From an uncultured Oscillospiraceae bacterium (lineage in GTDB: Bacteria; Bacillota; Clostridia; Oscillospirales; Oscillospiraceae), in contig CAKTAK010000004.1 in the NCBI GenBank assembly GCA_934527315.1, forward strand, positions 7,109 through 71,108: DNA of 64,000 bases, in the 5' to 3' direction. The notes under the pieces are model-generated. The model searched no databases and was not told where the DNA came from. It saw nothing but the letters and a program-made list of their open reading frames with translations. Positions 16,251-37,606 of this stretch are shown one piece after another. Each line of letters starts with the position of its first letter. The stretch's first letter is position 1. A program made the position numbers and the translations under genes.

Positions 16251-16783
16251 AAAAGCTCAAATACTCCGCACCCTTCGACAGTCGAGATTATTTCACCCAG
16301 AATATTCTCCCCACAGCCATTTTGGCTGACCAGAAAACCATTCGGAAACAGATTCCCTACCGGCAGCATGACGATTTGGAAATTCTTCTGATTCGTCAGG
16401 GCTCCGGCACCATTACGGTCAACGCGGTGGAATACCCCGTCACCCGTGGGGATTTGTTCTGTTTCAGCCCTTATCATTTCCACCGTCTGGACGCGGTGGA
16501 CGGCGACAAGCTGGAGGTTTCCGAGTGCCATGTGAACAGCGGCGTTTACTTTTACGTGACCGCCTGCCCCTACTATCACACGGAGGAAACCACCGCCCTG
16601 CCCTACCCTCATCTGCACGTCAAATTGAGCGAATCCCAGACCCGGCAGGTGGAATATCTGCTGGACGGCATCGCCATGGAAAGCGCCCAGAAAAACATTC
16701 AGGAGAATCAATCCTGTTTCTTCCTGCTGATGAAACTGTTCGGCATTGTGGAGCGCTGTGCCGTAAAGCCGGACGCAGACTGA
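16247..16783 (+). CDS. Stand-alone cupin protein (AraC-type ligand-binding-like), translationally coupled to the regulator
   Basis: 178 aa. Its ATG overlaps the araC-like stop (ATGA). Cupin-like motifs HDDLEILLIRQGSG..GDLFCFSPYHFH. No helix-turn-helix. Confidence 0.7.
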   Translation: MKKLKYSAPFDSRDYFTQNILPTAILADQKTIRKQIPYRQHDDLEILLIRQGSGTITVNAVEYPVTRGDLFCFSPYHFHRLDAVDGDKLEVSECHVNSGVYFYVTACPYYHTEETTALPYPHLHVKLSESQTRQVEYLLDGIAMESAQKNIQENQSCFFLLMKLFGIVERCAVKPDAD

Positions 16784-16861
16784 ATTCTGGGATTTTTGCT
16801 CAGATTTTTCATGAAAATTCTAAGGAAAACGTCAAAAATATAACGCCCCGGACTTTTATGC

Positions 16862-16890
16862 TTGACTTCCATCTGGACTGTTGATATCAT
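16862..16890 (+). promoter_or_regulatory. Sigma-A promoter for SDR gene 1
   Basis: TTGACT-N17-TATCAT. Confidence 0.55.
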
Positions 16891-16907
16891 TGCTGTTTGA
16901 TGATATC
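16883..16907. promoter_or_regulatory. Perfect inverted repeat (candidate operator) overlapping the -10 and transcription start of the SDR-1 promoter
   Basis: GATATCAT-N9-ATGATATC. Confidence 0.4.
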
Positions 16908-16995
16908 TATTGTTTTTCTGTAAAAAACATGGGGCGGTCAAGCTGTCTGCCCCGCATTTTCCCATATTGCACGATTGATTGGAGGAGGCTTACCC

Positions 16996-17751
16996 ATGGG
17001 ACATCATTTGATGGATGGTAAAACTGTCTTTCTGACAGGTGGAGCCGGAGGAATCGGATTTGCAACTGCTCGTCTGATGTTGGAAGAGGGCGCGCAGGCT
17101 GTTTTAATCACGGATCTGAACGAGGAAGTAACCACAAAGGCTGCCGAAAAGCTGAAAAGCGAGTTCCCCGGCCGGAACATTGAGGCCGCTTGGCCCAATT
17201 TGGGCAGCGAAGAAGAAATCGGTGCCGTAATGCGCGCCTTTGCGGAAAAATACGGAAAGCTGGACGCTGTGCTGTCCATTGCCGGTATTACCCATAACAC
17301 GACCATCAAGCGGATGCAGCCCGGTGAGTTTCTCCGTCAGGTGGACGTGAACCTGATTGACACCTACAATGTGGACCGGCAGGCCGGTCTGATTATGCGC
17401 GAGCAGCGGTTCGGTTCCATTGTGAACACCAGCTCCATCTGCGGTCTGTACGGCAACCCCATGGGCTGCGGTTACGGCGCATCGAAAGCCGGTGTGATCG
17501 GTCTGACCAAGTCTTTGGGCCGCGAGCTGGGCTACTTCAATGTCCGGGTCAACTGCGTTGCGCCCGGCGCAATCCGCACCCCCATGACCGCAAACCTTTC
17601 CAAAGAGGCGCAGGCTGCCGCAGTGGCTAACATTGCGCTGCGCCGCATCGGCGAGCCGGAAGAAGTTGCAAACGTTTTTCTGTTCCTGGCCTCCGATTTG
17701 TCCACCTACTGCACCGCCTCGGTTTACAACGTGGACGGTTTTTCCATCTGA
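16996..17751 (+). CDS. Short-chain dehydrogenase/reductase (classical SDR, BaiA/FabG-like), paralog 1
   Basis: 251 aa. TGGAGGIG Rossmann motif, catalytic YGASK, and C-terminal EPEEVANVFLFLASDLSTY. A GGAGGAGG ribosome-binding site is present. Confidence 0.85.
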   Translation: MGHHLMDGKTVFLTGGAGGIGFATARLMLEEGAQAVLITDLNEEVTTKAAEKLKSEFPGRNIEAAWPNLGSEEEIGAVMRAFAEKYGKLDAVLSIAGITHNTTIKRMQPGEFLRQVDVNLIDTYNVDRQAGLIMREQRFGSIVNTSSICGLYGNPMGCGYGASKAGVIGLTKSLGRELGYFNVRVNCVAPGAIRTPMTANLSKEAQAAAVANIALRRIGEPEEVANVFLFLASDLSTYCTASVYNVDGFSI

Positions 17752-17806
17752 AAAACGCCGGAAACCCTTGAAAAATAAGGAGTTTTTACGTATATTCTAT
17801 AAGGAC

Positions 17807-17844
17807 AATGCCGCAGATAGAACATATCTGCGGCATTGTTTTTA
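17807..17844 (+). terminator. Rho-independent terminator after SDR-1
   Basis: AATGCCGCAGAT-loop-ATCTGCGGCATT followed by GTTTTTA. Confidence 0.75.
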
Positions 17845-17891
17845 TTCACTATGCACAATTTTTGACAATCTGATTTAAGCAAAACGATTTC

Positions 17892-17920
17892 TTGACTTCC
17901 TGCACACAGCGTGATAATAT
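17892..17920 (+). promoter_or_regulatory. Sigma-A promoter for SDR gene 2
   Basis: TTGACT-N17-TAATAT. Confidence 0.55.
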
Positions 17921-17980
17921 TAACAACAAGAGCGAATGATTCACACTACGCTACTGAATTATTGATTGGAGGAAATTCAC

Positions 17981-18763
17981 ATGGAAAACATGATGAAGGG
18001 CAAGAACGTATTTATTACCGGCGGTTCCCGCGGTATCGGTTTTGCCACCGCAAGAGAAATGCTGAAGGAAGGCGCTAACGCAGTTGCTATCTGCAGCCAC
18101 TTTGAGGAAACCCGCGAGGCCGCTCTGGCTAAGCTGAACGAGGAGTTCCCCGGCCGCAACATCGTTGGCTACACCTTCGATCTGGCTACCTGCACCGAGG
18201 CTGAAATCGATGCATGCATGAAAGACTTCATTGCTAAGTTCCCCAACGAGGAAGGCAAGCAGCATCTGGACGCTGTCTGCTCCATCGCTGGTATCACCCA
18301 CAACAACACCTGCAAGAACATCCCCGAGGGTCTGTTCGAAGAGGTCGTTCGCGTCAACCTGATCGGCACCTGGTACGTTGACCACTGCGCTTGCAACATC
18401 ATGCGCGGCCAGAAGTACGGCGCTATCGTGAACACCGCTTCCATCGCTGGTGTGTACGGCTCCTCCATGGGTGCTGGCTACGGCGCTTCCAAGGGCGGCG
18501 TTGTTGGTCTGACTCGTTCTCTGGGCCGTGAGATGGCTTACTTCAACGTTCGCGTGAACGCTATCTGCCCGGGCGTTGTGAAGACCGACATGGTTATGAA
18601 GGACACCTCCGAGGCTGCTATCAAGTACGTGTGCCAGGGCATTGCTATGCACCGTATGGGCGAGCCCGAAGAGCTGGCTAAGATGTTCGTGTTCCTGTCC
18701 TCCGATGCTTCCAGCTACTGCGAAGCAGGCATCTACCACTGCGACGGCTGGACCACCGGCTGA
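17981..18763 (+). CDS. Short-chain dehydrogenase/reductase, paralog 2 (strong highly-expressed-type codon bias)
   Basis: 260 aa. TGGSRGIG, YGASK, EPEELAKMFVFLSSDASSY. A GGAGGA ribosome-binding site is present. Codon usage is dominated by gct/acc/atc/aag/ttc/tac, as in the ribosomal genes of this window. Confidence 0.85.
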   Translation: MENMMKGKNVFITGGSRGIGFATAREMLKEGANAVAICSHFEETREAALAKLNEEFPGRNIVGYTFDLATCTEAEIDACMKDFIAKFPNEEGKQHLDAVCSIAGITHNNTCKNIPEGLFEEVVRVNLIGTWYVDHCACNIMRGQKYGAIVNTASIAGVYGSSMGAGYGASKGGVVGLTRSLGREMAYFNVRVNAICPGVVKTDMVMKDTSEAAIKYVCQGIAMHRMGEPEELAKMFVFLSSDASSYCEAGIYHCDGWTTG

Positions 18764-18789
18764 TATTGCACTCAATATCGAAATTTTCA

Positions 18790-18816
18790 GGACCCGGTTT
18801 TACCGGGTCCTTTTTT
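18790..18816 (+). terminator. Rho-independent terminator after SDR-2
   Basis: GGACCCGG-tttta-CCGGGTCC followed by TTTTTT. Confidence 0.8.
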
Positions 18817-18906
18817 ATTGCTTTCAGCCATCTTTAACAATATATTATTTTTGTCAAATGTACAAAATTCACAAAAAATATTGACACTTTTCTGATTATC
18901 TTACTC

Positions 18907-18935
18907 TTGACATTTAGTTGTCAAAAAGGTATCAT
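18907..18935 (+). promoter_or_regulatory. Sigma-A promoter for CoA-transferase 1, with the -35 embedded in a TTGACA-N6-TGTCAA inverted repeat
   Basis: TTGACA-N17-TATCAT. Further TGTCAA/TTGACA half-sites lie at about 18852 and 18881. Confidence 0.55.
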
Positions 18936-19050
18936 AACATAGTCGGAATCAATTTGGAGAGTGATTCCTCTTACTTGTTAAATTACCGGAGTTCGTTTCC
19001 GGACGAGCTGTGGCTGTTTAAAAGACATATTGAAAGGAAGTTATGTTGTA

Positions 19051-20409
19051 ATGAACGTTAAAGTGATTAACAACGCACTGCATCAGAAATTCAATGAGTA
19101 CCCCGGTTTCGGTGTTCTGGAAGGCGTGAAAGTTCTCGTCACCGGCACTAACATCGCTGGCCCCTTCGCAGGCTGCCTGATGGCTGAAATGGGCGCAAAG
19201 GTTGTCCAGGCTGAGGCTCCCAACATCCTGTGCCAGACCCGTGGTACCACCGCTTGGTCTCAGAACCACAGAAACGAATACTCCATCACTCTGAACACTG
19301 CTACCGCTCGCGGCAAAGAAGTGTTCCTGAAGGCTATCGAGTGGGCAGACATCTGGATCGAGGCTGGCCGTCCCGGTGGCTACGAGAAACGCGGCTTGTC
19401 CGACGAAGTGTGCTGGGAGCACAACAAAAAGCTGGCTATTGTCCACGTTTCCGGCTACGGCCAGTTCGGCCCCGCTAAGGACAAGGCTTCCTACGACGTT
19501 TCCGGCCAGGCAATGGGCGGCTACATGTACATGAACGGTGTCAGCCCCACTTCCGGCATGCTGAAAGTGAACCCCTACCTGTCCGACTACGTAACCGCTT
19601 ACAACGCTTGCATCGTGGCTCTGGCTGGCTACATCCATGCTAAGAACTTCGGCGAAGGCGATTCCTGCGACGTTGCTCAGTACGACACCATGTTCCGTCT
19701 GCTGGATAACTACCCCGCAGTGTGGTTCAACAAAGGCTATCCCAAACAGGGCGAGCCCGTTCCCTTCCGTACCGGTAACAAGAGCGACCAGGCTTGCTGC
19801 TTCTCCTTCTATGACACCAAAGACGGCGGCGCAATGTTCGTTGCTATCGTTGGCCAGGGCCCTGTGACCCGCGGCTACCCCATCATCGGCATGGGCACCC
19901 CCGGTGTCGATCCCGAAATCCCCGCAGCCTGCACCGGTTTCCCCCTGTTCGATCCTCGCGGCCAGAAGGCTGAGGCTCTGATCACCAAGTTCTGCGCAGA
20001 GCGTACCTGCGACGAGCTGGAAGAGATCTTCACCAAGGCCGGCATCCCCTGCCAGAGAGCTTACACCCCCGCTGACATCGAGAAGGATACTCAGTACGAG
20101 GCACGTGAGAACATCGTTGAGTGGGACGACCAGGTGTTCGGACCCATGAAGGGCATTGGCTGCACTAACATCTTCAAGAAACACCCCTCTCAGATCGTTG
20201 CTTCCGCTCCTACCTTCGGCGAGCACAACCGCGAGTTCCTGGAGTCTCTGGGTTACTCCGCAGCAGAGATCGACGAGATGTATGCTAAGAAGGAAATGGT
20301 CACCATGACCGCTGCTGACACCGCTGTCGTGAAGAACCTGGCAGCTTGGGGCTTCTTCTGGGATCCCAAACGTCAGAGCGAGCGTCTGGGTCTGGAGTTC
20401 AAGGGCTAA
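19051..20409 (+). CDS. Family III (CaiB/BaiF-type) acyl-CoA transferase, paralog 1 (highly-expressed-type codon bias)
   Basis: 452 aa. NIAGPFAG, WADIWIEAGRPGGYEKRGLSDEVCWEHNKKLAIVHVSGYGQFGP, GDSCDVAQYD, PFRTGNK. Shares AAGGAAG ribosome-binding site context with paralog 2. Confidence 0.9.
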   Translation: MNVKVINNALHQKFNEYPGFGVLEGVKVLVTGTNIAGPFAGCLMAEMGAKVVQAEAPNILCQTRGTTAWSQNHRNEYSITLNTATARGKEVFLKAIEWADIWIEAGRPGGYEKRGLSDEVCWEHNKKLAIVHVSGYGQFGPAKDKASYDVSGQAMGGYMYMNGVSPTSGMLKVNPYLSDYVTAYNACIVALAGYIHAKNFGEGDSCDVAQYDTMFRLLDNYPAVWFNKGYPKQGEPVPFRTGNKSDQACCFSFYDTKDGGAMFVAIVGQGPVTRGYPIIGMGTPGVDPEIPAACTGFPLFDPRGQKAEALITKFCAERTCDELEEIFTKAGIPCQRAYTPADIEKDTQYEARENIVEWDDQVFGPMKGIGCTNIFKKHPSQIVASAPTFGEHNREFLESLGYSAAEIDEMYAKKEMVTMTAADTAVVKNLAAWGFFWDPKRQSERLGLEFKG

Positions 20410-20438
20410 TCCTTTCTCCAACCAACAGAATTTTACAA

Positions 20439-20469
20439 GGACCGCAGTTTTTGCTGCGGTCCTTTTTTT
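20439..20469 (+). terminator. Rho-independent terminator after CoA-transferase 1
   Basis: GGACCGCAG-tttttg-CTGCGGTCC followed by TTTTTTT. Confidence 0.8.
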
Positions 20470-20586
20470 GTGTTTCCGGGAACGGACATTTTCGGGGAAA
20501 TGTCTGCGTAACCAACATATTGCCATATTCTTAGTTCATACTGCACAAGAATATTTCTGTTTTTTGAGCGGTTTTTGAATTAGTTG

Positions 20587-20615
20587 TTGACATTGACATT
20601 GAAATAACATATAAT
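20587..20615 (+). promoter_or_regulatory. Perfect consensus sigma-A promoter for CoA-transferase 2 (tandem -35 hexamers)
   Basis: TTGACATTGACA ... TATAAT. The first TTGACA is exactly 17 nt from TATAAT. Confidence 0.65.
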
Positions 20616-20674
20616 CAATACAAGCTTTTGGAAGGAAGCTCTTGCAAAACTTAAATTGAAAGGAAGTCATTGCC

Positions 20675-22039
20675 ATGAAAGTATTCAATAATGCTCTGCA
20701 TCAGGATTTTGCAGCTTACCCCCAGTTCGGTGTCCTCCGCGGCGTAAAAGTTTTTATTACCGCTACTAATATTGCCGGTCCTTTCGCCGGTTCTCTGATG
20801 GCCGAAATGGGCGCACAGGTTCTGCGTGCAGAGCATCCGAAAATTGCCTGCTCCACCCGTGGCACAACTGCTTGCTCTCAGCTGCACAGAAACGAGTACT
20901 CCATCACTCTGAACGCAGCAACTGCCCGCGGTAAAGAAGTATTTCTGAAGGCAATTGAATGGGCTGATATTTGGATCGAGGCCGGTCGTCCCGGCGGTTA
21001 TGAGAAACGCGGTCTGTCCGATGAAGTTTGCTGGGAGCACAACAAAAAGCTCTCCATCGTGCACGTTTCCGGTTATGGTCAGTTTGGTCCTTACAAAGAC
21101 AAGGCTTCCTATGACGTATCTGGCCAGGCAATGGGCGGCTACATGTACATGAACGGCGTGAACCCCACTTCCGGTCCTTTGAAAGTCAACCCCTATCTGT
21201 CTGACTATGTGACTGCATACAACGTATGCATTGCTGCAATGGCAGGCCACATCCACGCACTGAAGTACGGCGAAGGCGACTCCTGCGACGTTGCTCAGTA
21301 TGATAACATGTTCCGTCTGCTGGATAACTATCCCGCAGTGTGGTTCAACAAGGGCTATCCCAAAGCAGGCGAGCCCGTTCCCTTCCGCAGCGGCAACAAG
21401 CACGACAGCTCTGCAGGTTTCTCCTTCTACAACACCAAAGACGGCGGCGCAATGTTCGTTGCTATCGTTGGTCAGGGTCCTGTGGAACGCGGATTCCCCA
21501 TCATCGGCATGCCCGCCCCCGGCAGCGGTGAAAAGGTTCCCGGTCTGGACATGGTCGTTGACGCACGTTGCACCGGCTACCCCATCTTCGATCCTCGCGG
21601 TCAGGTAGAAGAAAAGCTGATCGAGCAGTTCTGCGCAGAGCGCACCTGCGATGAGCTGGAGAAGATCTTCACCGAAGCCGGTATCCCCTGCCAGAGAGCT
21701 TACACGCCCGCTGATATCGAGAAGGATCCTCAGTACGAGGCACGTGAGAACATCGTGGAATGGGACGACCAGGTATTCGGACCCATGAAGGGCATTGGTT
21801 TGACCAACATCTTCAAACGGAACCCCTCCGACATCGTTGCATCTGCACCTCTGTTCGGCGAGCACAACCGCGAGGTTCTGTCTGCTTGGGGCTTCTCCGA
21901 TGCTGATATCGACGATATGTACGCTAAGGGCGAGCTGGAAAGCTGGACCGCAGCCGATACCGCACGGAACAAGATGCTGAAAGAGTGGGGCTTCTTCTGG
22001 GATCCCGAGCGTCAGGCAAAGCGCATCGGTCTGGAGTAA
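20675..22039 (+). CDS. Family III (CaiB/BaiF-type) acyl-CoA transferase, paralog 2
   Basis: 454 aa, about 75-80% identical to paralog 1 at the protein level, but with many synonymous differences (more ggt/tat/gat/ttt codons). Confidence 0.9.
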   Translation: MKVFNNALHQDFAAYPQFGVLRGVKVFITATNIAGPFAGSLMAEMGAQVLRAEHPKIACSTRGTTACSQLHRNEYSITLNAATARGKEVFLKAIEWADIWIEAGRPGGYEKRGLSDEVCWEHNKKLSIVHVSGYGQFGPYKDKASYDVSGQAMGGYMYMNGVNPTSGPLKVNPYLSDYVTAYNVCIAAMAGHIHALKYGEGDSCDVAQYDNMFRLLDNYPAVWFNKGYPKAGEPVPFRSGNKHDSSAGFSFYNTKDGGAMFVAIVGQGPVERGFPIIGMPAPGSGEKVPGLDMVVDARCTGYPIFDPRGQVEEKLIEQFCAERTCDELEKIFTEAGIPCQRAYTPADIEKDPQYEARENIVEWDDQVFGPMKGIGLTNIFKRNPSDIVASAPLFGEHNREVLSAWGFSDADIDDMYAKGELESWTAADTARNKMLKEWGFFWDPERQAKRIGLE

Positions 22040-22082
22040 TTTCCCCTCCGCTGTATCAAACAGTCAACAATTGAATACCAAA

Positions 22083-22116
22083 ATTCCCTGCAGTGCTGCT
22101 GCAGGGAATTTTTTTG
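22083..22116 (+). terminator. Rho-independent terminator after CoA-transferase 2
   Basis: ATTCCCTGCAG-tgctg-CTGCAGGGAAT followed by TTTTTTT. Confidence 0.8.
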
Positions 22117-22200
22117 CCTTCGATGGGGATTTCTCTCTTTTATCATTGTCGAATTTGTGATACAGTAGCACTATTCTCGAAAATTGGAGCTGTAAGCCGC

Positions 22201-23544
22201 ATGGAACACGATTTGACCTCCGGAAAGGTATTTCCCACGCTGATTTCTTTCTCTATTCCCTACCTCATATCCTATTTTCTCCAAACCCTGTACGGTATGG
22301 CGGATTTGTTCATCATCGGCCGATTCTGCGCCGTAGAGGCAACCACCGCTGTTTCCATCGGCAGTCAAGTGATGCACATGCTCACGGTCATGATTGTGGG
22401 CCTTGCTATGGGAACCACCGTAAAAATCGGTCATGCCATCGGCAGCGGCGACCGCAGTGAAGTCAACCGCATCATCGGCAATACGGTTGTTCTCTTTGCC
22501 GGTATCGCCGTGGTTTCTCTGGTGTTGCTGTCGAGGTACGTGCGGCCCATCGTTTCTCTGATGTCCACCCCGGAAGAGGCTGCGGTGGGAACGGTAAATT
22601 ACCTGCTGATTTGTTTCATCGGGATTCCCTTTGTGATGGCATATAATATCATCAGCTCTATTTTCCGCGGGTTGGGCGATTCCAAAACACCTATGTACTT
22701 CGTGACCATTGCCTGCGTGGTGAATATTCTGCTGGACTATCTGTTCATCGGCGGGTGTGGTCTGGGTCCCGCCGGCGCCGCTTTGGGAACGACCCTTGCC
22801 CAAGGCGTGAGCGTCATTCTGGCTTTGATTTACATTCGGAAAATGAACAAAATCTCCGGGTTTTCCCGGGCGGATTTCCGCCCCCAAAAGGAAACGCTCC
22901 TGCCCATTTTGCAGGTCGGAATCCCCGTAGCCGCGCAAGACGGATTGATTCAGATTTCCTTCCTCCTCATCACCGTTTTTGCCAACCTCCGCGGTCTGAC
23001 CGATGCAGCCGCCGTGGGCATTGTGGAGAAGATTATCAGCTTTCTGTTTTTGATTCCCTCCTCCATGCTCTCCGCTGTATCGGCGCTGGCTGCTCAGAAT
23101 ATCGGTGCCGGAAAGCATGACAGGGTCCGTTTGACCCTGCAATATGCGCTGTGCATCGCCGTGGGCATGGGCTTTGTTTGGGTGATTCTGATGCAATTTG
23201 CCGCAGATTCCGCAGTTGCGCTGTTTACCAAAGACCCGACAGCCATTGCCATGGGCGGCGAGTATATGCGGGGCTACGTTTGGGATTGCGTGTTCGCCGG
23301 GATTCATTTCTGCTTTAGCGGATATTTCTGCGCTTACGGAAAATCGTGGATTTCCTTTCTCCAGAACATTCTCTCCATTGTCCTTGCCCGGGTGCCGTTG
23401 GCATGGTATACCGCAAGATTTTGCTTGGACAGCCTTTTTCCCATGGGTCTGGCTGCTCCCGCCGGCTCCCTGCTGTCGGTGGTCGTTTGCCTGATTGCCT
23501 ACAAGCTGCTACGGAAGAACTCCCCGGAATTGCAGGGAAAATAA
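22201..23544 (+). CDS. MATE-family efflux transporter
   Basis: 447 aa from MEHDLTSGKVFPTLISFSIPYLISYFLQTLYGMADLFIIGRF. About 12 transmembrane helices. The ORF-track start at 22093 is upstream of the terminator and is unlikely. Confidence 0.8.
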   Translation: MEHDLTSGKVFPTLISFSIPYLISYFLQTLYGMADLFIIGRFCAVEATTAVSIGSQVMHMLTVMIVGLAMGTTVKIGHAIGSGDRSEVNRIIGNTVVLFAGIAVVSLVLLSRYVRPIVSLMSTPEEAAVGTVNYLLICFIGIPFVMAYNIISSIFRGLGDSKTPMYFVTIACVVNILLDYLFIGGCGLGPAGAALGTTLAQGVSVILALIYIRKMNKISGFSRADFRPQKETLLPILQVGIPVAAQDGLIQISFLLITVFANLRGLTDAAAVGIVEKIISFLFLIPSSMLSAVSALAAQNIGAGKHDRVRLTLQYALCIAVGMGFVWVILMQFAADSAVALFTKDPTAIAMGGEYMRGYVWDCVFAGIHFCFSGYFCAYGKSWISFLQNILSIVLARVPLAWYTARFCLDSLFPMGLAAPAGSLLSVVVCLIAYKLLRKNSPELQGK

Positions 23545-24035: not shown

Positions 24036-25253
24036 TCAAATCAACAAACCGTAACGATTCACCAACGGCAGCAACTCCTCTTCCGACAAGCCGCCCTCGT
24101 ACAGCGCCCGACCCTGATACACCCGCAACGCAGCCTCCAACAGGTCTGCGCTGTCGCAAACCAGACACAGCGGTTTGGAAAACAGATACTGCACGTCCGC
24201 CAATGCGTCCACGTCTTCCCAGCTGTCAACCGCCACAGCCACCATAGGGAATCCGTCCTCCATGGCGTCGGTCAAATCCTCTTCCAACGTGTCGCTGCAC
24301 CGGAGCACCGGACCGTGGTCTGCATCTACCGGAAGGCAGAACACCTGCTTTTCCGTGGCAGCGGTGAGCTCGTCCGTATGCATGGGTGCGGGAGGTACAA
24401 ATTCCGCCCCCTCCAATGCCCGATTCAGTGCCGCAAGGTGGGTTGCGTCGGTGCCGCAGCAGCCGCCGAAGAATCCCACACCGGCAGCCAACATCTCCGG
24501 CACATACGAGGCAAACTTCTCCGGCGGGAAGTTGTAAACCGCTTTTCCCTCCGACATATCCGGCAGACCGGCATTGGGTTTTGCCATCAGTGGCACCCGG
24601 GCAAATTCCCGCAGCCGCTGCACCTGCACCACCATCGTTCCGATATCCGACAGGCAGTTCAAGCCGAAAGCGTCTACCCCCATGCCCTGGAGCACCGTCA
24701 GCGCTGCGGTCACGTCCGTACCGGACAGACTCCGTCCGTTTTCATCGCAGGTAAAGGACACCAAAATGGGTTTATCGGACACGCTGCGCACCGCCAACAC
24801 CGCTGCCCGGGCATCGGGCAGGGTCATCATGGTTTCAATCACGAACAAGTCCACCCCCGCTGATGCAAGTCCCGCAGCCTGTTCCGTGTAAATATCCACC
24901 AATTCTTCAAACGAGGCGGTGCCCATGGGAGAAAGGAACAGTCCCGTGGGCGCAATGTCCCCCGCAATCCATGCGCTGTTTCCCAAAGCCGACCGGCTCA
25001 AACCCACCAGACGGGCATTGTACTCCTCGGTTTGATTAAATATGCCCCGCTCCTCCAATTTCTGCCGATTGGCGCCGAATGTGGGCGCGTAAACAATGCG
25101 GCTGCCGGCTGCCACATAACTCTGCTGAATCTCTGCCAGCGCCGCCGGGTGCTCCAACAGCCATTGCTCCGTGCTAATCTCGCCGGTATATCCCCGGACC
25201 TGCGCCGCGGTACCCATGGCGCCGTCCAATAGAACGGGAAAACGCAATTCCAT
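24036..25253 (-). CDS. Homocysteine S-methyltransferase-family (zinc/thiol methyltransferase) protein with an extra C-terminal region of about 110 aa
   Basis: MELRFPVLLDGAMGT.. with the zinc motif FFGGCCGTDATH. A GGAGGA ribosome-binding site is present. It lies 4 nt downstream of the RACo gene. Confidence 0.8.
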   Translation of the reverse strand: MELRFPVLLDGAMGTAAQVRGYTGEISTEQWLLEHPAALAEIQQSYVAAGSRIVYAPTFGANRQKLEERGIFNQTEEYNARLVGLSRSALGNSAWIAGDIAPTGLFLSPMGTASFEELVDIYTEQAAGLASAGVDLFVIETMMTLPDARAAVLAVRSVSDKPILVSFTCDENGRSLSGTDVTAALTVLQGMGVDAFGLNCLSDIGTMVVQVQRLREFARVPLMAKPNAGLPDMSEGKAVYNFPPEKFASYVPEMLAAGVGFFGGCCGTDATHLAALNRALEGAEFVPPAPMHTDELTAATEKQVFCLPVDADHGPVLRCSDTLEEDLTDAMEDGFPMVAVAVDSWEDVDALADVQYLFSKPLCLVCDSADLLEAALRVYQGRALYEGGLSEEELLPLVNRYGLLI

Positions 25254-25271
25254 GCCTGATTCCTCCAAACT

Positions 25272-26774
25272 TCAAAATGTCATTGATTCCGTAAAGGCGT
25301 CCGTAAAAGCCGGATTGCCCGAAAGTTCCAAATAGCTGCACTGCCGTGCAATTTCCTGCAATTTTCCGCCGTATTGACGGTCCAGTGCCACCATGGACGC
25401 ACCGGCTAAAGCCGTGTTGCCCAAAGTGCGGCAGCGGTCCGCCAACGCCCGGGGCAGCATACCGATTGCCGCCGCGCTGTCGGGGTCCATATAGCTGCCA
25501 AAACCCCCGGCCAGATACAGCCCGTCCACCTGCTCCGGGGAGATGCCCCGCTGCCGGAGCAGCACCTGAATCCCGCCGGCTACCGCGGCTTTTGCCAGCT
25601 GCAAATTCCGCACGTCCTCCGCCGTAAGATACACCTCCGGCGTCAGATAAAACCGTCCGTTGCCATGGTCATCGGATTCCACATAACGGCGGGCCGCCGC
25701 CGGAACTTCGTCTTTCGGCAGCAGCCGCCCGCTCTCGTCAATGATTCCCAGCTGCCGCAGCTGCGCTGCCAAATCCAGCAGACCGGAGCCGCAAATGCCC
25801 TTTGCCGTACCACCGCCGATGACTTCATACAGAAATCCCCGGTCATACCGCACCCGGCTCACCGCACCGGAAATGCCCGGCATGCCGCAGGTGATGCCCG
25901 CGCCCTCAAACGCCGGACCGGAGGCCACAGCACAGCAGGAAAATCCCTCTTTCCCGCCCAAAGCCATTTCTCCGTTGGTGCCGATGTCCAAAAAGAGGAA
26001 GTTGCCGGATTTCTCATACAATCCCGAGACCAGCAGACCGGCTGTAATGTCGCCGCCCACGTACCCCGCCACGCAGGGCGCATAGGTCAGCGGCACTCCG
26101 CAAAGTGTTTCCCCCCGGGGCGTATCAAACAGCGTTTCCGGGTGAAAGGGCGCTGCCGCGATTCCCGTCACGGGCAATCCGGCAAACAAATGCTGCATCA
26201 CCGTATTCCCCGCCACCACGATTTCCTGCAATTCATGGACGGATTCCCCTCCGCGGGTCAGAATGTCTTCCAACAGCTGCCAGACCTGCGCCCGAATTTT
26301 TTCGGACAGCTCTTCCAAGCCGCTTTCCCGCTCCATGGTGTACTGAATCCGGCTGATGACATCGCCGCCGTAAGGCGCCTGCAGGTTCCATGCACCTCTT
26401 TCGCCCAAAAGGGCGCCGGTTGCCCGGTCATACACCCGGACTGCCACTGTGGTGGTTCCCAAATCCACCGCCGCGCCCCAGCCGGTTCTCCCCGGTTCAC
26501 ATGAAGGCAGGGCAACGGTTTCCGTCAAAATAACACCGCCCATAGATGCGGGCAGGTCAATCACATCTCCCCCTTTGGGAATCAGCTTGCAGGCCAATCG
26601 GGGTACACCGTTCACCGGAACCCGGCATTTTCCGCACCGCCCCCGGCCGCCGCAAGCCGCCGGAATGGAGTATCCCGCGCTCCGCAGCACCGACAGCAGC
26701 GTTTCTCCCTCTTCCAACGGCACAAGCCGGATTTCACTCCCCTGCCGAACCTGAATACTTGACACGAACACCAC
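25272..26774 (-). CDS. Reductive activator of corrinoid protein (RACo/RamA-like): N-terminal 2Fe-2S ferredoxin plus ASKHA ATPase domain
   Basis: 500 aa. The cysteine cluster CGGRGRCGKCRV..C matches a plant-type ferredoxin. ASKHA motifs DLGTTTV and DIGTNGE are present. Confidence 0.8.
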   Translation of the reverse strand: MVFVSSIQVRQGSEIRLVPLEEGETLLSVLRSAGYSIPAACGGRGRCGKCRVPVNGVPRLACKLIPKGGDVIDLPASMGGVILTETVALPSCEPGRTGWGAAVDLGTTTVAVRVYDRATGALLGERGAWNLQAPYGGDVISRIQYTMERESGLEELSEKIRAQVWQLLEDILTRGGESVHELQEIVVAGNTVMQHLFAGLPVTGIAAAPFHPETLFDTPRGETLCGVPLTYAPCVAGYVGGDITAGLLVSGLYEKSGNFLFLDIGTNGEMALGGKEGFSCCAVASGPAFEGAGITCGMPGISGAVSRVRYDRGFLYEVIGGGTAKGICGSGLLDLAAQLRQLGIIDESGRLLPKDEVPAAARRYVESDDHGNGRFYLTPEVYLTAEDVRNLQLAKAAVAGGIQVLLRQRGISPEQVDGLYLAGGFGSYMDPDSAAAIGMLPRALADRCRTLGNTALAGASMVALDRQYGGKLQEIARQCSYLELSGNPAFTDAFTESMTF

Positions 26775-26843
26775 CCGCCAATATAATGAATGTAAATTTC
26801 ATTTTACGCAGAAACCAATCGGATTGTCAAGAGGCATCGAACC

Positions 26844-27380
26844 ATGGAAGAAATTCTGAAACTGGCCCGGGAGAACGGTTTTACCCACTTCGGCCCGGTG
26901 AATTACGGCGCACTGATTCCCCTGCCGGAGGTACGGGATATGTGCGCAGCAGACCGCTGCGGGAAATACGGGAAAAGCTGGTCCTGCCCGCCGGCCTGCG
27001 GAACCTTGCAGGAGGCATCGGCGGCCATTGCCCGGTATTCCCGCGGGGTTCTGGTGCAAACCACGGGCGCGCTGTCCGATTCCTTTGATTATGACGGTAT
27101 GACCGCCCTTTCCCAAGCCCATCGGCAGCGCTTTTCCAACTTTGCCCGGCAGGTGCGGTTTCTGTTTCCGGATTGCCTGCCCCTGACTGCCGGTGCCTGC
27201 AATCTCTGCAAAAAATGTACCTATCCCGGAAAGCCCTGCCGGTTCCCGGACAAGCGGTTGGCCTCTATGGAGGCTTACGGGCTGTTTGTCAGCGATATCT
27301 GCGTCCAATCCGGGCTGCAATACAATTACGGTCCCAACACTTTGACGTACACATCTTGTGTGCTGTTTTCCGAGAGGTGA
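26844..27380 (+). CDS. DUF2284-type predicted metal-binding protein (Cys-rich)
   Basis: 178 aa with CGKYGKSWSCPPAC..CNLCKKC..C. Proteins of this family are typically found beside corrinoid methyltransferase genes. Confidence 0.65.
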   Translation: MEEILKLARENGFTHFGPVNYGALIPLPEVRDMCAADRCGKYGKSWSCPPACGTLQEASAAIARYSRGVLVQTTGALSDSFDYDGMTALSQAHRQRFSNFARQVRFLFPDCLPLTAGACNLCKKCTYPGKPCRFPDKRLASMEAYGLFVSDICVQSGLQYNYGPNTLTYTSCVLFSER

Positions 27381-27386
27381 ATCCCA

Positions 27387-29126
27387 ATGCCCACACCAAA
27401 AGAACTATTTCTGGAAACCATTCGTCCCGACGGCCAGCCGGAGCGGGCGCTGAAACAATATGAGGCTCTGTCCATGTGTCTGGATGACCCTATCAATACC
27501 TTTCTCCGGGGCAATCGAAAGCGGGGCACCACCAGCGTGGACCGTTGGGGCACCACCATCAGTTTCCCGGAAACCGCCCCCGGTCCCATGCCCCTCCACG
27601 GCGAGGGTTTGACCGTCTGTCCGGACATCACCCGTTGGGAAGAAACCGTCCGCGTACCGGATATTGCCGGCCGCTGTACGGAGGGTTGGGAGGAATGCCG
27701 CACCCGCGCCCGGGAGCGCTGCGGGGAGGACAAATTGCTCACCGCCTTTATGGGTACGGGTATTTTTGAGCAGTGCCATTTCCTCATGGGCTTTGAGGAC
27801 ACGCTGACCAATCTCTATGAGCACCCGCAGGAAATGCATGCCCTCATTGAGACCATTACGGAATACCGGATTCTCTACGCAAAGCTGCTGATTGACAATC
27901 TCCGCCCGGACGCCATTTTGTCCCACGATGACTGGGGTACCAAGGCTGCGCTGTTTATGAAACCGGAAATGTGGCGGGAATTCTTCAAAGAGCCCTACCG
28001 CCGATTCTACGGATATATCCGCTCCCGGGGCGTCATTGCCATTCACCATGCCGACTCCTATTTGGTTCCCATTGTGGACGATATGGCGGAAATCGGTATT
28101 CAGGTGTGGCAGGGTACGCTGCCGGAAAATGATATTCCCGCGCTGCAGCGCCATTTGCAGGGCAAGCTGACTTTGATGGGCGGTTTCGGTGCCGCCATTG
28201 ACCGGGCAGACGCACAGCCGGAAGAAATTCTGGATTATGCCGCACGGACCCTCCGCGCCTGCTGCCCCGGCGGACATTTTATTCCCTGCATTACCTATGG
28301 TCTGCCCGGTGCGGTGTTTCCCCAGGTCGACCAATCTTTGAATGAGGCTGTGGACCGATACAACGCAGAGCTCCATGTGCCCCATTTCCCCCTGCCTGCC
28401 GTGCCCCGGCGGTGCAAATCGCTACAAACCGCCGGAAGCGCCGGAGACACCGCCGCAGCTGCCGATGACAGCGGCGCAGACCTGATGAGCCGCATTGCCA
28501 AAGCCTTGGAGCACGGACAGCAGAAAAAGCTGCTCCAGCTGTGTCAGCAAGCCTTGGACGATGGCTATGCCCCCCAAGAGATTCTCTCCCAAGGCATGAT
28601 GCAGGGCATGAATGTGTTGGGCGAGGCATTTTCCGCCAACCGCGCCTTTGTGCCGGAGATGCTCATGGCTGCCCGGTGCATGACCGCCGCCACAGAAATG
28701 CTCAAGCCCTACATGATTTCCGAAAACGCGGAGCAGTTGGGGCGGGTCTGTCTGGGTACGGTGAAAGGCGACATGCATGACATCGGCAAAAATCTGGTGA
28801 AAATCATGATGGAGGGCAGCGGCATTGAAGTCATTGATCTGGGCGTTGACGTGGACCCGCAGGACTTTGTGGATACCGCCGTTGCGGAGCACTGCGGCAT
28901 CATCGCCTGCTCCTCTCTGCTGACCACCACCATGCAGGAAATGCAGTCCGTGGTCCAACTGGTTGCCCGGCGCGGTCTGCGGGACAACATTAAAATTATG
29001 GTGGGCGGCGCGCCCATCAGCCAGAATTTCTGCGAGAGCATCGGTGCAGATATTTATACGGCAGACGCAGCCGCCGCTGCCCGCGCCGCCGTGCAGGTCT
29101 TTCAAGACCGGAAATCCGCCGGCTGA
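27387..29126 (+). CDS. Fusion protein: UroD-family (MtaA/CmuA-like) methyltransferase domain plus C-terminal cobalamin-binding domain
   Basis: 579 aa. N-terminal ~345 aa are UroD-like (ILSHDDWGTKAALFMKPEMWREFF...IAIHHADS). C-terminal B12-binding Rossmann domain with the DxHxxG motif GDMHDIGKNLV. Confidence 0.8.
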   Translation: MPTPKELFLETIRPDGQPERALKQYEALSMCLDDPINTFLRGNRKRGTTSVDRWGTTISFPETAPGPMPLHGEGLTVCPDITRWEETVRVPDIAGRCTEGWEECRTRARERCGEDKLLTAFMGTGIFEQCHFLMGFEDTLTNLYEHPQEMHALIETITEYRILYAKLLIDNLRPDAILSHDDWGTKAALFMKPEMWREFFKEPYRRFYGYIRSRGVIAIHHADSYLVPIVDDMAEIGIQVWQGTLPENDIPALQRHLQGKLTLMGGFGAAIDRADAQPEEILDYAARTLRACCPGGHFIPCITYGLPGAVFPQVDQSLNEAVDRYNAELHVPHFPLPAVPRRCKSLQTAGSAGDTAAAADDSGADLMSRIAKALEHGQQKKLLQLCQQALDDGYAPQEILSQGMMQGMNVLGEAFSANRAFVPEMLMAARCMTAATEMLKPYMISENAEQLGRVCLGTVKGDMHDIGKNLVKIMMEGSGIEVIDLGVDVDPQDFVDTAVAEHCGIIACSSLLTTTMQEMQSVVQLVARRGLRDNIKIMVGGAPISQNFCESIGADIYTADAAAAARAAVQVFQDRKSAG

Positions 29127-29180: not shown

Positions 29181-30215
29181 ATGCTGGCTTATACATATCT
29201 ATCAAAGGGTACATTCGCATTGACCGAGAAACCGAAACCGGAGCTGCTCCATGAGCGGGACGCCATTGTCAAGGTCACATTGGCCAGTATTTGCTCCAGT
29301 GACCTGCACATCAAGCACGGAAGTGTTCCCCGGGCTGTTCCAGGTATCACCGTGGGTCATGAGATGGTGGGCATTGTGGAATCGGTGGGCAGCGCCATAA
29401 CCAACGTCAAACCGGGCGACCGGGTGACCGTGAACGTGGAAACATTCTGCGGCGAGTGCTTTTTCTGCAAGAAGGGCTACGTGAACAACTGCACCGACCA
29501 AAACGGCGGTTGGGCACTGGGCTGCCGCATTGACGGCGGGCAAGCGGAATATGTACGGGTGCCTTTTGCCGACCAGGGCTTGAACAAAATTCCCGACGGT
29601 GTGACCGACCGACAGGCGCTGTTTGTGGGCGATATCCTCGCCACCGGATTTTGGGCGGCGCGTATTTCCGAGATTACTCCGGAGGATACCGTGCTGATGA
29701 TCGGCGCCGGTCCCACCGGCATTTGCACTCTGCTGTGCGTAATGCTCAAGAATCCCAAGCGCATCATTGTGTGCGAAAAGGACGAAAACCGCATTCGCTT
29801 TATCAACGAACACTATCCGGAGGTGCTGACGGTCTCTCCGGAGGCATGTCTGGACTTTGTGCAGGAAAACAGCGACCACGGCGGTGCCGATGTGGTGCTG
29901 GAAGTGGCAGGCGCGGATTCCACATTCCGTCTGGCATGGGAATGCGCCAGACCGAACGCCATTGTGACGGTGGTAGCGCTGTATGACAAAGCGCAGACCC
30001 TGCCCCTGCCGGATATGTACGGCAAAAACCTCATCTTCAAAACCGGCGGTGTTGACGGCTGCAACTGCGAGGAAACGCTGCAATTGATTGCCGAGGGCAA
30101 AATCAACACCGAGCCGCTGATTACCCACACCTATCCCCTCAGCAAAATCGAAGAGGCTTACGAATTGTTCGAAAACAAGCGGGACAACGTCATCAAAGTT
30201 GCCGTGGAGTGCTAA
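29181..30215 (+). CDS. Zinc-dependent medium-chain alcohol dehydrogenase (threonine/sorbitol dehydrogenase-like)
   Basis: 344 aa. Zn ligands CSSDLH..GHE.. and structural Zn cysteines CGECFFCKKGYVNNC. Confidence 0.85.
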   Translation: MLAYTYLSKGTFALTEKPKPELLHERDAIVKVTLASICSSDLHIKHGSVPRAVPGITVGHEMVGIVESVGSAITNVKPGDRVTVNVETFCGECFFCKKGYVNNCTDQNGGWALGCRIDGGQAEYVRVPFADQGLNKIPDGVTDRQALFVGDILATGFWAARISEITPEDTVLMIGAGPTGICTLLCVMLKNPKRIIVCEKDENRIRFINEHYPEVLTVSPEACLDFVQENSDHGGADVVLEVAGADSTFRLAWECARPNAIVTVVALYDKAQTLPLPDMYGKNLIFKTGGVDGCNCEETLQLIAEGKINTEPLITHTYPLSKIEEAYELFENKRDNVIKVAVEC

Positions 30216-30233
30216 GCATCATAAAAACAAGAA

Positions 30234-30265
30234 AACCGAGTATCGCGAAAGATACTCGGTTTTTG
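30234..30265 (+). terminator. Rho-independent terminator after the ADH gene
   Basis: ACCGAGTATC-gcgaaa-GATACTCGGT followed by TTTT. Confidence 0.75.
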
Positions 30266-30320: not shown

Positions 30321-30395
30321 TGGAGGCGCCACCCAGATTTGAACTGGGGAATCGCGGATTTGCAGTCCACTGCCTTACCACTTGGCTATGGCGCC
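30321..30395 (-). tRNA. tRNA-Cys (GCA)
   Basis: Reverse complement ggcgccatagccaagtggtaaggcagtggactGCAaatcc...tggcgcctcca. Cloverleaf with anticodon GCA and an encoded CCA. Confidence 0.85.
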
Positions 30396-30457
30396 ATATT
30401 CAGAAAAACAGGAAAGAGGAAATTCCGCCGTCGCGGAATCCTCTCCTGATTATAAGA

Positions 30458-30533
30458 TGGAGCGGGCGACGAGGCTCGAACTCGCTACCTCCACCTTGGC
30501 AAGGTGGCGCTCTACCGGATGAGCTACGCCCGC
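30458..30533 (-). tRNA. tRNA-Gly (GCC)
   Basis: Reverse complement gcgggcgtagctcatccggtagagcgccaccttGCCaaggtgg...cgcccgctcca. Confidence 0.85.
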
Positions 30534-30560
30534 ATATAACCCGAAAGAAATTCTTTCGGG

Positions 30561-30636
<76 letters not shown>

Positions 30637-30665
30637 ACATCACTGCGCTGCACACTTTTGAATTT

Positions 30666-30741
30666 TGGTGGGAACAACAGGGCTCGAACCTGTGACCCCC
30701 TGCTTGTAAGGCAGGTGCTCTCCCAGCTGAGCTATGCTCCC
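30666..30741 (-). tRNA. tRNA-Val (TAC)
   Basis: Reverse complement gggagcatagctcagctgggagagcacctgccttTACaagcagg...gttcccacca. Confidence 0.85.
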
Positions 30742-35847: not shown

Positions 35848-35902
35848 CCATAAAAAAATCCCTCTTGCCGACAAAAGCAAGAGGGATTTTGTATTGCAAT
35901 GT

Positions 35903-37600
35903 TTACATTTTTTCCGGTGCGGTCACACCAATGATGCCCAAGCAGATGGCAATCACCTGCCGTGCGGTATCGGCCAGTTTCAGACGGGCATTCAGCACGT
36001 CTTCTGCCTCGCCCTTAATGCGGCAGGCAGCATAGAACCGATGGAACCGGGCAGCCAACTCGATAACGTACCGGTTGATGCGGCTGGGGTCATAATCCCG
36101 GGCAGCCAGCTTAATTTCTTCCGGCAGCGCGGAAATCTGCTTAATCAGCTCCCGCTCCTGCTCAGTGGTCAGCAAATCGAACTGCACGGCGCTTGCTGCG
36201 GGAACGGTGTGTCCGTCCTCTTTCAGCGCTTGAATCAGAGTGCAGATACGGGCATGGGCATACTGTACATAGTACACCGGGTTCTCGCTGTCTTCCCGCA
36301 CAGCCAAATCCAGATCGAATTCCAGATGGGTATCGGGCTTTGCATTGAAGAAGAACCGGCAGGCGTCCACGCCGATTTCGTCCATCAGATCTGCCAAGGT
36401 CAGCGCCTTACCGGTGCGCTTGGAAACCTTTACCACTTCATCGCCCCGCACCAGACGCACCATCTGCATGATGAGGAAGTCCAGATTCCGGCCGTTCAAA
36501 CCCAATGCAGGGGCTTTCATGGTGTTGCCAAAGCGAATGGCATGGCCATGGTGGTCAGCACCCCAAACGTCAATGACACGGTCAAAATGACGCTCCACGA
36601 ATTTGTTCCGATGATATGCAATATCCACGGCATAGTAGGTGTAGAAACCGTTGGAGCGGCGCATGACTTCGTCCTTATCTGCGCCCAGTTCCGTGTTCTT
36701 CAGCCACAGAGCGCCGTCCTTTTCATAGGTCAGACCGGCCTGGGTGAGCAGGTCCACGGTTTCCTTCACATAGCCGGACTGATGCAGGCTGCTTTCCAGG
36801 AACCACTGGTCAAAGTGAATCCGATAGCGCTCCAAATCCCGCTGCATTCTTGCAATGTTATAGGGCAGGCCGAATTCCACAAATGCCTTGCAGCGCTCAT
36901 CGCTGGGTGCGTTCACCCATTTGTCGCCGTCCCGCTCAAAAATCAGCTTGGCCAATGCTTTAATGTCATCGCCGTGATAGCCGTTGTCAGGGAACTCCAC
37001 AGCGTCTTCGCCCTGAATCAGCTGCAGATACCGAGCCTCGATGGATTTGCCGAACAAGTCCACCTGATTGCCGGCGTCATTCACGTAGAACTCCCGCCAC
37101 ACATCGTAGCCGGCGCGCTGCAGCACGGAAGCCAGCGTATCACCCAGCACACCGCCCCGGGCATTGCCGATGGTCATGGGACCGGTGGGGTTGGCGGAAA
37201 CGAACTCCACCATCACCTTTTCCCCGTGACCCACATCACAGCTGCCGAAGTCATCGCCTTCTTTTTCCACATCTGCCAACACATCGCCGTACCACTTCTG
37301 GCTCAGCCGGAAGTTGATAAAGCCGGGACCTGCAATCTCCACGCCCTCAAACCAGCTGCCTTCCAGATTCAGCTCTGCCACCAGAGCCTCTGCAATCTGG
37401 CGGGGTGCTTTCTTCATAGCCTTTGCGGAAACCATTGCATGGTTTGCTGCATAGTCGCCGTTTTTGGTATCCTTGGGAATATCCACATTGCCCCGGAATT
37501 CTGCGTCTTTCGGCAGAATGTCCTTTTCCGCTGCGCTGTGGTATGCCTGCTGCAGCAGCTCATCTGCTTTTGCTTTTGCCTGTTCAATCAAGTTTGCCAT
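35903..37600 (-). CDS. argS: Arginine--tRNA ligase
   Basis: 565 aa, class I aaRS, with the KMSKS-region equivalent VKVSKRTGKAL. Confidence 0.9.
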   Translation of the reverse strand: MANLIEQAKAKADELLQQAYHSAAEKDILPKDAEFRGNVDIPKDTKNGDYAANHAMVSAKAMKKAPRQIAEALVAELNLEGSWFEGVEIAGPGFINFRLSQKWYGDVLADVEKEGDDFGSCDVGHGEKVMVEFVSANPTGPMTIGNARGGVLGDTLASVLQRAGYDVWREFYVNDAGNQVDLFGKSIEARYLQLIQGEDAVEFPDNGYHGDDIKALAKLIFERDGDKWVNAPSDERCKAFVEFGLPYNIARMQRDLERYRIHFDQWFLESSLHQSGYVKETVDLLTQAGLTYEKDGALWLKNTELGADKDEVMRRSNGFYTYYAVDIAYHRNKFVERHFDRVIDVWGADHHGHAIRFGNTMKAPALGLNGRNLDFLIMQMVRLVRGDEVVKVSKRTGKALTLADLMDEIGVDACRFFFNAKPDTHLEFDLDLAVREDSENPVYYVQYAHARICTLIQALKEDGHTVPAASAVQFDLLTTEQERELIKQISALPEEIKLAARDYDPSRINRYVIELAARFHRFYAACRIKGEAEDVLNARLKLADTARQVIAICLGIIGVTAPEKM

Positions 37601-37606
37601 ATAATC

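Follow-up and report, generated by a model that had tools for sequence, protein, structure and literature searches.

A conserved four-gene corrinoid module of gut Bacillota as a candidate split methionine synthase with an exchanged donor part

Gene layout and protein families of the module

The 64,000-nt stretch of the Oscillospiraceae contig CAKTAK010000004.1 analyzed here (the window; all module coordinates are positions within it) contains four adjacent genes that an earlier note, made from the sequence without database searches, had grouped into a corrinoid-dependent methyl-transfer module. The open reading frames (ORFs) were found at the coordinates given there, and Pfam assigned every domain that had been named. 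The minus strand carries the genes of a homocysteine methyltransferase (24036–25253, 405 aa; Pfam S-methyl_trans, E 7e-65, residues 12–285 of a longer ORF) and of a reductive activator of corrinoid proteins, RACo (25272–26774; Fer2, Raco_middle and RACo_C_ter, E 2e-69). On the plus strand lie the gene of a Cys-rich DUF2284 protein (26844–27380; DUF2284, E 3e-47) and, 6 nt after its stop codon, that of a 579-aa fusion protein (27387–29126; URO-D, B12-binding_2 and B12-binding). The longer ORF of the homocysteine methyltransferase spans 24036–25268 and has a TTG start at 25268; Met6 is most likely the true start, giving 405 aa, which is the family length and also that called independently on the same species' contigs. 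The same calls make RACo 497 aa long. No NCBIfam model reached its cut-off for any of the four proteins.

The two two-gene operons diverge from a promoter region at 26759–26843. The gap between them, previously put at about 70 bp, is 69–78 bp, its exact size being set by the choice of RACo start, and promoter motifs are present on both strands: TTGACA-17-TATAAT on the plus strand (12/12 matches, 26759–26787) and TTGACA-18-TAAAAT on the minus strand (11/12, 26830–26801). Raw GC content is elevated in the region, yet the GC content at third codon positions (GC3) of the module genes (0.685–0.70) equals that of neighboring genes. The module thus looks native, and recent horizontal transfer, considered as an explanation, was rejected on this basis.

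Among solved structures, the homocysteine methyltransferase is closest to T. maritima MetH(1-566), with E 1e-50. Residues invariant in the family (405-aa numbering) are D10/G11 in DGAxGT, E140 in ETMMT, N199-C200, N227 in PNAG and C265-C266 in GGCCGT, the zinc motif singled out earlier. E140, C200, N227 and C265/C266 align to E146, C207, N234 and C272/C273 of T. maritima MetH, which we take, from published MetH structures, to be the residues of the homocysteine/Zn site. The homocysteine-binding (beta/alpha)8 barrel with its Zn(Cys)3 site (24399–25253, minus strand; PF02574) contains the three zinc-ligand cysteines and the conserved Glu and Asn found in MetH, in line with the proposal that the acceptor is of the thiol and not of the pterin type.

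The assignment to the homocysteine S-methyltransferase family therefore stands, while the C-terminal region of about 110 aa, which had been left unassigned, can be given an identity. A profile built from 30 family C-termini matched residues 362–431 of T. maritima MetH, which belong to its folate domain (E 6e-4), and matched the pterin barrel of MeTr weakly. An AlphaFold2 (AF2) model of the protein had a predicted local distance difference test score (pLDDT) of 86, about 90 in the C-terminal part, and a predicted template modeling score of 0.88. In Foldseek searches the model aligned with MetH(1-566) over 431 columns (TMq 0.80), as opposed to approximately 300 columns (TMq ~0.57) for BHMT and MmuM, which have no folate domain. 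The corresponding segment (24039–24398, minus strand) ends after roughly the fourth strand of the pterin-binding (Fol) barrel and comprises no more than about its first half; no PF00809 match was obtained in the protein. Asp and Asn positions that presumably contact the pterin in MeTr and MetH structures align to Val/Ile and Glu/Asp/Ala in the family C-termini. Judged by profile and model, the last 115–120 aa or so are the first half of the MetH pterin-binding barrel, and the protein as a whole is an N-terminal fragment descended from MetH. Since the folate barrel is halved and its pterin-contact positions are altered, canonical methyl-folate binding by this protein is not expected; we propose that the retained half is a structural remnant that has lost folate binding. 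This refines the earlier note, in that the locus would be a rewired MetH descendant and not an unrelated thiol methyltransferase.

The N-terminal domain of the fusion protein (27387–28391, plus strand) matches URO-D over residues 104–323 (E 9e-15) and gives UroD matches over approximately 350 columns in Foldseek. It is thus UroD-like, as predicted, and not a DHPS-like pterin barrel, which would have been expected of a simple split MetH. A profile of the domain gave only marginal matches among solved structures, to UroD and MtaA (E 0.03–0.08). Its invariant residues are E128, H131, H180-D181-D182-W-G, H220-H221-x-D223 and D272. The H-x-C zinc motif of MtaA aligns to the invariant H221-A-D223, and the third MtaA cysteine is not conserved in the fusion family, so a thiol-methylating role of the domain is unlikely; the fusion protein also scores 26 bits against the MtaA/CmuA model TIGR01463 (cut-off 235), with a weak MtaA match at E 5e-6. 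A low-complexity, non-conserved linker (28392–28481; AF2 pLDDT below 50 at residues 330–363) joins this domain to the corrinoid-binding module (28482–29126; PF02607 and PF02310). The latter consists of a four-helix cap and a Rossmann B12-binding domain with the His-on motif D462-x-H464-x-x-G467, which lies in the GDMHDIGK sequence pointed out earlier and is invariant in the family. MetH has the same combination of a cap and a DxHxxG domain; here it sits on a polypeptide separate from the homocysteine barrel. By matching scores (1y80, E 3e-50, and MtgC/MtbC-type NCBIfam models, E ~1e-53, versus E 2e-27 for MetH 1bmt), the B12 module is nearer to the corrinoid proteins of methyltransferase systems (MtaC/MtgC type) than to MetH. 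We therefore describe the 579-aa protein as a putative UroD-fold methyltransferase I (MT I) fused to a corrinoid protein, its MT I activity being a prediction.

The AdoMet reactivation domain of MetH, PF02965, was absent from all four module proteins by Pfam, and RACo is present instead. RACo contains the N-terminal [2Fe-2S] ferredoxin, middle and ASKHA ATPase domains, all above their Pfam cut-offs, and four invariant N-terminal cysteines (C41, C47, C50 and C62); its score against the AcsV-like NCBIfam model is 319 bits, below the cut-off. It is predicted to be an ATP-dependent reductive activator of corrinoid enzymes. The DUF2284 protein has invariant cysteines at C34, C39 and C48 and in the motif C119-x2-C122-x2-C125-x6-C132, which is typical of Fe-S proteins, and is probably an Fe-S protein; the structure search found no solved relative. 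It is kept with the fusion protein in four related loci that lack an adjacent RACo gene. It may relay electrons to RACo or to the corrinoid, or handle the cofactor, and may be analogous to the DUF1638 protein of the split MetH of Phaeobacter (PMC5764234). DUF2284 appears only in lists in the open-access literature searched. It is also fused to an arsenite methyltransferase in the selenoprotein family NF041536 (PMC13188914), which hints at a wider association of DUF2284 with methyl-transfer enzymes.

Conservation, neighborhood and relatives

Clustering of the fusion protein at 90% identity gives more than 2,100 clusters, several of which contain thousands of sequences; all have the same three domains and none is named. 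A scan of one genome per species retrieved relatives of the fusion protein in at least 118 species-level genomes, and 80 of the corresponding loci were analyzed, 53 of them with enough flanking sequence for the arrangement to be evaluated. The homocysteine methyltransferase gene adjoins the fusion gene in all 53, always at full length including the C-terminal region. DUF2284, directly upstream of the fusion gene, is found in 47/53 loci and RACo in 43/53; the exact arrangement of the window recurs in 40, and in six, the homocysteine methyltransferase and fusion genes, a divergent pair, are the sole adjacent ones. The association is far beyond chance and the pairing is obligate. In the Flintibacter faecis locus (L066), a 326-aa ORF (6723–7703) is inserted between the DUF2284 and fusion genes and breaks the tight 6-nt junction.

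Hosts of the module include Oscillospiraceae (Lawsonibacter, Flintibacter, Vescimonas, Limivicinus), Anaerovoracaceae-like bacteria (Eubacterium pyruvativorans, Mogibacterium and metagenome-assembled genomes (MAGs) resembling E. saphenum), Lachnospiraceae, and Solobacterium/Bulleidia-like (Erysipelotrichaceae-like) MAGs. They were sampled from human gut, chicken caecum and ruminant gut, and the species of the window was found with identical synteny in Hadza gut metagenomes. Identity of the MT I domain across bacterial families is 51–76%.

Genes flanking the module are not conserved. All-versus-all clustering of 880 ORFs from the 80 loci and a Pfam search of 97 flanking ORFs from 28 loci yielded 107 families, none of them in more than three loci, and revealed no recurrent transporter, regulator or pathway gene. 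A CbiK/CbiX cobalt chelatase adjoins the module in 3 of these 28 loci and is the sole recurrent neighbor family, a weak link to cobamide biosynthesis. At Rfam gathering thresholds, no riboswitch, T-box or B12 element was detected in the window or in eight related loci with long intergenic gaps, the only matches being tRNAs and one S10 leader. Likewise, tblastn with a pterin-binding methyltransferase II (MT II) from a related operon (see below) found no match in the window or the 80 loci; an adjacent gene of this kind had been named in advance as a sign of a split MetH. The module is autonomous, with no conserved transporter, regulator, riboswitch or pterin-binding gene nearby.

The Zn-dependent alcohol dehydrogenase gene said to follow the module at 29181 is indeed there (29181–30215, plus strand; ADH_N and ADH_zinc_N) and is followed by a hairpin resembling a terminator (30231–30264). 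It adjoins the module only in the same species. The dehydrogenase, the CaiB-like CoA-transferases and the MATE exporter of the window are absent from all 80 related loci and were rejected as parts of the module. Just past the dehydrogenase gene comes a cluster of tRNA genes (Cys, Gly, Phe, Val), at 30321–30741 on the minus strand, and two distant Anaerovoracaceae-like genomes also have tRNA arrays 0.5–2.5 kb downstream of the module (L053, 10287–10797; L060, 11954–12469). This proximity may be a coincidence or the remnant of a conserved housekeeping neighborhood.

An exhaustive search yielded 3,362 cluster representatives related to the N-terminal domain of the fusion protein. Many are stand-alone proteins of approximately 330 aa that share W54-G55, E128, HDDWG and HH-x-D. 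According to a profile search, their hosts include Acetobacterium wieringae, Desulfosporosinus, Eubacteriaceae ES2/ES3, Catenibacillus scindens, Cuneatibacter and Oscillospiraceae. Most of the genes are solitary or adjoin TetR and MFS_2 genes. The closest stand-alone relative with an informative gene context, P0441 of Eubacteriaceae ES3, leads an operon of URO-D, Pterin_bind and B12-binding genes with a TetR gene, which is the classical MT I/MT II/corrinoid-protein layout. The N-terminal domain of the fusion protein is 37% identical to P0441, the protein in the MT I position (E 2e-79), and its C-terminal part is 46% identical to the corrinoid protein of the same operon (E 6e-60).

Two further fusions of UroD-subfamily domains with corrinoid modules were noticed, P0289 (613 aa) and P0273 (589 aa). 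One of them has the reverse order, with cap-B12 at the N-terminus and URO-D at the C-terminus; the other has the order of the window protein and is only 38% identical to it. UroD-corrinoid fusion thus seems to have happened more than once. A 603-aa "longer" homologue, P0122, was rejected as an assembly artefact with an internal duplication.

Proposed function and rival explanations

The three-part logic recognized earlier (donor methyltransferase, acceptor methyltransferase and corrinoid activator) is matched by the UroD-fold MT I, the homocysteine acceptor and RACo, with activities that are predicted. On the grounds of domain identities, conserved catalytic residues, synteny and the place that relatives take in a canonical operon, we favor, with somewhat more confidence than doubt, the view that the products of the four genes form a self-contained corrinoid-dependent methyl donor:homocysteine methyltransferase, that is, an alternative methionine synthase whose methyl-folate half has been swapped for another donor module. 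That the fusion protein and the homocysteine methyltransferase work as partners, and in which direction the methyl group flows, is suggested by the obligate synteny and by the chemistry of homologues, while homology and the destroyed folate site favor a donor other than folate. Homology makes an O-methyl compound the most likely candidate, for instance a methoxylated aromatic from plants, with a small diffusible donor like methanol as the other option.

In the proposed cycle, RACo would use ATP and its [2Fe-2S] center to bring inactive Co(II) on the B12 domain of the fusion protein to Co(I), possibly helped by the Cys-rich DUF2284 protein, as an Fe-S relay for electrons or in the handling of the corrinoid. 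The UroD-fold MT I domain would bind a methylated compound other than methyl-tetrahydrofolate, the invariant His/Asp/Glu cluster would activate it, and Co(I) would take the methyl group. The tethered cap-and-B12 domain would then bring CH3-Co(III) to the separate MetH-derived barrel, where the Zn-bound homocysteine thiolate would accept the methyl group, yielding methionine and regenerating Co(I). The logic of a swapped donor has a precedent in Phaeobacter and Ruegeria, for which a modular MetH that works with a RamA-like activator and with exchangeable donor methyltransferases has been described (PMC5764234, PMC12478193).

Extended to the hosts at large, the idea becomes that many gut and rumen Clostridia make or recycle methionine from diet-derived methyl groups via B12, bypassing folate, with methoxylated plant aromatics or methanol as donors and an O-demethylase-type MT I-corrinoid fusion grafted onto a truncated MetH. 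To this wider proposition, we give a little less than an even chance.

Several points weigh against the assignment as a methionine synthase with a swapped donor. The nearest named NCBIfam model for the homocysteine domain is that of a YitJ-type bifunctional enzyme, with 218 bits versus 138 bits for MetH, both below cut-offs. The AF2 model of the fusion protein is of moderate quality (pLDDT 69) and poor in the active-site loops. Moreover, the lack of a conserved transporter, regulator or riboswitch, together with strong promoters and the high conservation of the MT I domain, fits a housekeeping enzyme acting on a ubiquitous intracellular metabolite, and that metabolite could be methyl-folate.

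The last point is the core of the main rival explanation, which we regard as unlikely: the module would be the ordinary methionine synthase of the organism, a split MetH of new structure and conventional function that still uses 5-methyl-tetrahydrofolate, its pterin barrel having been displaced non-orthologously by the UroD-fold domain. The autonomy of the module, its constitutive-looking promoters and the very high conservation of the methyltransferase domain between bacterial families all suit such an enzyme, as does the native look of the genes by GC3, and a split MetH with a RamA-like activator is already known (PMC5764234). However, P0441 adjoins a separate Pterin_bind MT II and occupies the donor-specific MT I slot, not the folate slot, and the halved folate barrel with its changed pterin-contact positions is hard to explain if the donor is folate. 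Furthermore, we know of no UroD-fold enzyme that uses methyl-folate, which also counts against this explanation.

It is quite improbable, in our judgment, that the 405-aa protein is uncoupled from the corrinoid protein and transfers methyl groups from S-methylmethionine or S-adenosylmethionine (SAM) directly to homocysteine, like MmuM or YitJ, while the fusion protein, RACo and DUF2284 serve an acceptor encoded elsewhere, e.g., a distant pterin-binding MT II. The top NCBIfam score, to the YitJ-type homocysteine S-methyltransferase/methylenetetrahydrofolate reductase model, points that way, and orphan MT I genes with distant partners are common among the relatives. Yet the adjacency of the fusion and homocysteine methyltransferase genes holds in 53/53 loci, including minimal two-gene divergent pairs, in several bacterial families, and the protein keeps the MetH-specific architecture of a homocysteine barrel followed by the start of a folate barrel, which MmuM and BHMT lack.

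Finally, the suggestion that the module runs in reverse, demethylating methionine or a methylthio compound and passing the methyl group via cobalt to an acceptor on the UroD-fold domain, is hardly credible. UroD-fold MtsA-type enzymes do act on methylthiols, and methionine and methanethiol abound in the gut, the mouth and the rumen, but none of the analyses supported the idea. Co(I) is methylated very poorly by thioethers, methionine among them, and the half-reaction of MetH is for practical purposes one-way; the His-Cys-Cys zinc site seen in relatives that handle thiols is missing from the UroD domain.

Comparison with known systems, other features of the window and implications

The module mixes features of MetH, of O-demethylase-type systems and of the Roseobacter MtgBCDE system without matching the full definition of any of them. 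With MetH (Hcy-Fol-Cap-Cob-AdoMet domains), it shares the Zn(Cys)3/Asn/Glu homocysteine barrel, superposition of the whole 405-aa protein on MetH(1-566), and a cap with a His-on DxHxxG B12 domain; the barrel-cap-B12 order of the fusion protein mirrors Fol-Cap-Cob of MetH. In contrast to MetH, the module is split over two polypeptides, its folate barrel is halved and a UroD-fold domain takes the donor position, its B12 domain is of the MtaC/MtgC type, and ATP-dependent RACo replaces the AdoMet reactivation domain.

The three-component O-demethylase systems of acetogens and Desulfitobacterium likewise have an MT I of UroD fold, a corrinoid protein resembling MtaC and an activator of the RACo type. 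In the module, however, MT I and the corrinoid protein are fused, the MetH-derived homocysteine methyltransferase replaces the pterin-binding (MtrH/MeTr-like) MT II, TetR and MFS genes are missing and DUF2284 is added. With a homocysteine methyltransferase in the place of MT II, the methyl group would end up in methionine and not in methyl-folate. MtoA, considered as a UroD-like parallel, was dropped because it is MtrH-like.

A UroD-superfamily methyltransferase and a corrinoid domain are also combined in one polypeptide in the chloromethane:corrinoid methyltransferase CmuA, which has the same N-to-C order as the fusion protein, and in Methanosarcina MtsD/F/H. The fusion protein differs from these by the absence of the H-x-C...C zinc motif and lies far below the cut-off of the MtaA/CmuA model. 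CmuA passes its methyl group to the pterin-binding CmuB, and MtsD/F/H to coenzyme M.

The split MetH of Roseobacter (the three-part MetH of Phaeobacter and MtgBCDE of Ruegeria) resembles the module in having a separate homocysteine methyltransferase, an ATP-dependent reactivation protein of the RamA/RACo type, a corrinoid module that can be charged by alternative donor methyltransferases, and a small accessory protein (PMC5764234, PMC12478193). The donors there are methyl-folate, through a pterin-binding subunit, and glycine betaine, through the MttB-family MtgB, whereas the module's donor part has the UroD fold and is joined to the corrinoid domain in one chain. DUF1638 is the accessory protein in Roseobacter and DUF2284 here, and the hosts of the module are anaerobic Bacillota. 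No pterin-binding MtgD, MttB-family or DUF1638 protein was found among the module genes by Pfam or, for pterin-binding proteins, by tblastn.

Type 1 mlp clusters (Kountz & Balskus 2023, PMC10418091) are, like the module, widespread in anaerobic Bacillota and combine UroD-superfamily methyltransferases with a corrinoid protein and an activator of the Ram/RACE type and lack a folate methyltransferase; they have been proposed to be linked to methionine and methyl-sulfur metabolism. They are defined by at least two separate MtaA-like proteins with more than 25% identity to coenzyme M methyltransferases and a His-Cys-Cys site, and they contain two or three such proteins, a separate corrinoid protein and no PF02574 (PMC10418091). 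The module, with its single, fused UroD-fold domain and His/Asp motif, represents a different set of gene families. Core-MetE (MesA-D; PMC7857596) also converts homocysteine to methionine with a methyl-corrinoid protein, not methyl-folate, as the immediate donor, but it has the MetE fold (PF01717-like) in place of the MetH-type PF02574 barrel, and its description makes no mention of PF02574 or UroD partners. No description of the gene set studied here was found in the open-access literature searched, an absence that is not proof of novelty. The module would best be viewed as a split methionine synthase that depends on B12 and has been rewired by exchange of its donor module.

Elsewhere in the window, a run of genes upstream of the module (13022–23544) includes an AMP-binding acyl-CoA ligase (13022–14701), an AraC regulator (15006–16250), short-chain dehydrogenases/reductases (16975–17751 and 17966–18763), tandem family III CoA-transferases of the CaiB/BaiF type (19030–20409 and 20675–22039) and the MATE exporter. 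The set is reminiscent of a section of a CoA-dependent pathway of the bile-acid (bai-like) or carnitine type; it is kept in the same species and does not stand beside the module in other genera. A plus-strand gene at 5362–7293 encodes a 643-aa protein with an N-terminal tetratricopeptide repeat region and numerous leucine-rich repeats (LRR_4, E 2e-49); such a protein is uncommon for a gut Clostridium and may act at the cell surface or in host interaction. Long ORFs without a Pfam match at E 1e-5 occupy 35894–48449, including one of 1356 aa (44379–48449) and others at 38201–39346, 39873–40601 and 41417–43892. On contigs of the same species, 35903–37600 on the minus strand is called as an arginyl-tRNA synthetase, so the plus-strand ORF at 35894 is probably a shadow ORF. 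The S10 leader mentioned above is an S10-Clostridia ribosomal protein leader (57270–57351, minus strand; 42 bits, above the gathering score), which fits a Clostridia host.

If the proposed function is correct, the module would show clearly how B12 methyltransferases can swap modules in nature, here with a fossil half-barrel left behind, and would represent a new physiological class of methionine synthase. Abundant butyrate-producing gut taxa would possess a folate-independent, B12-dependent route to methionine, and predictions of methionine auxotrophy and B12 dependence made from their genomes would change. This also suggests that dietary methyl ethers or methanol would feed bacterial SAM pools, which would directly link a plant-rich diet, B12 availability and the bacterial methionine-SAM supply at the biochemical level.

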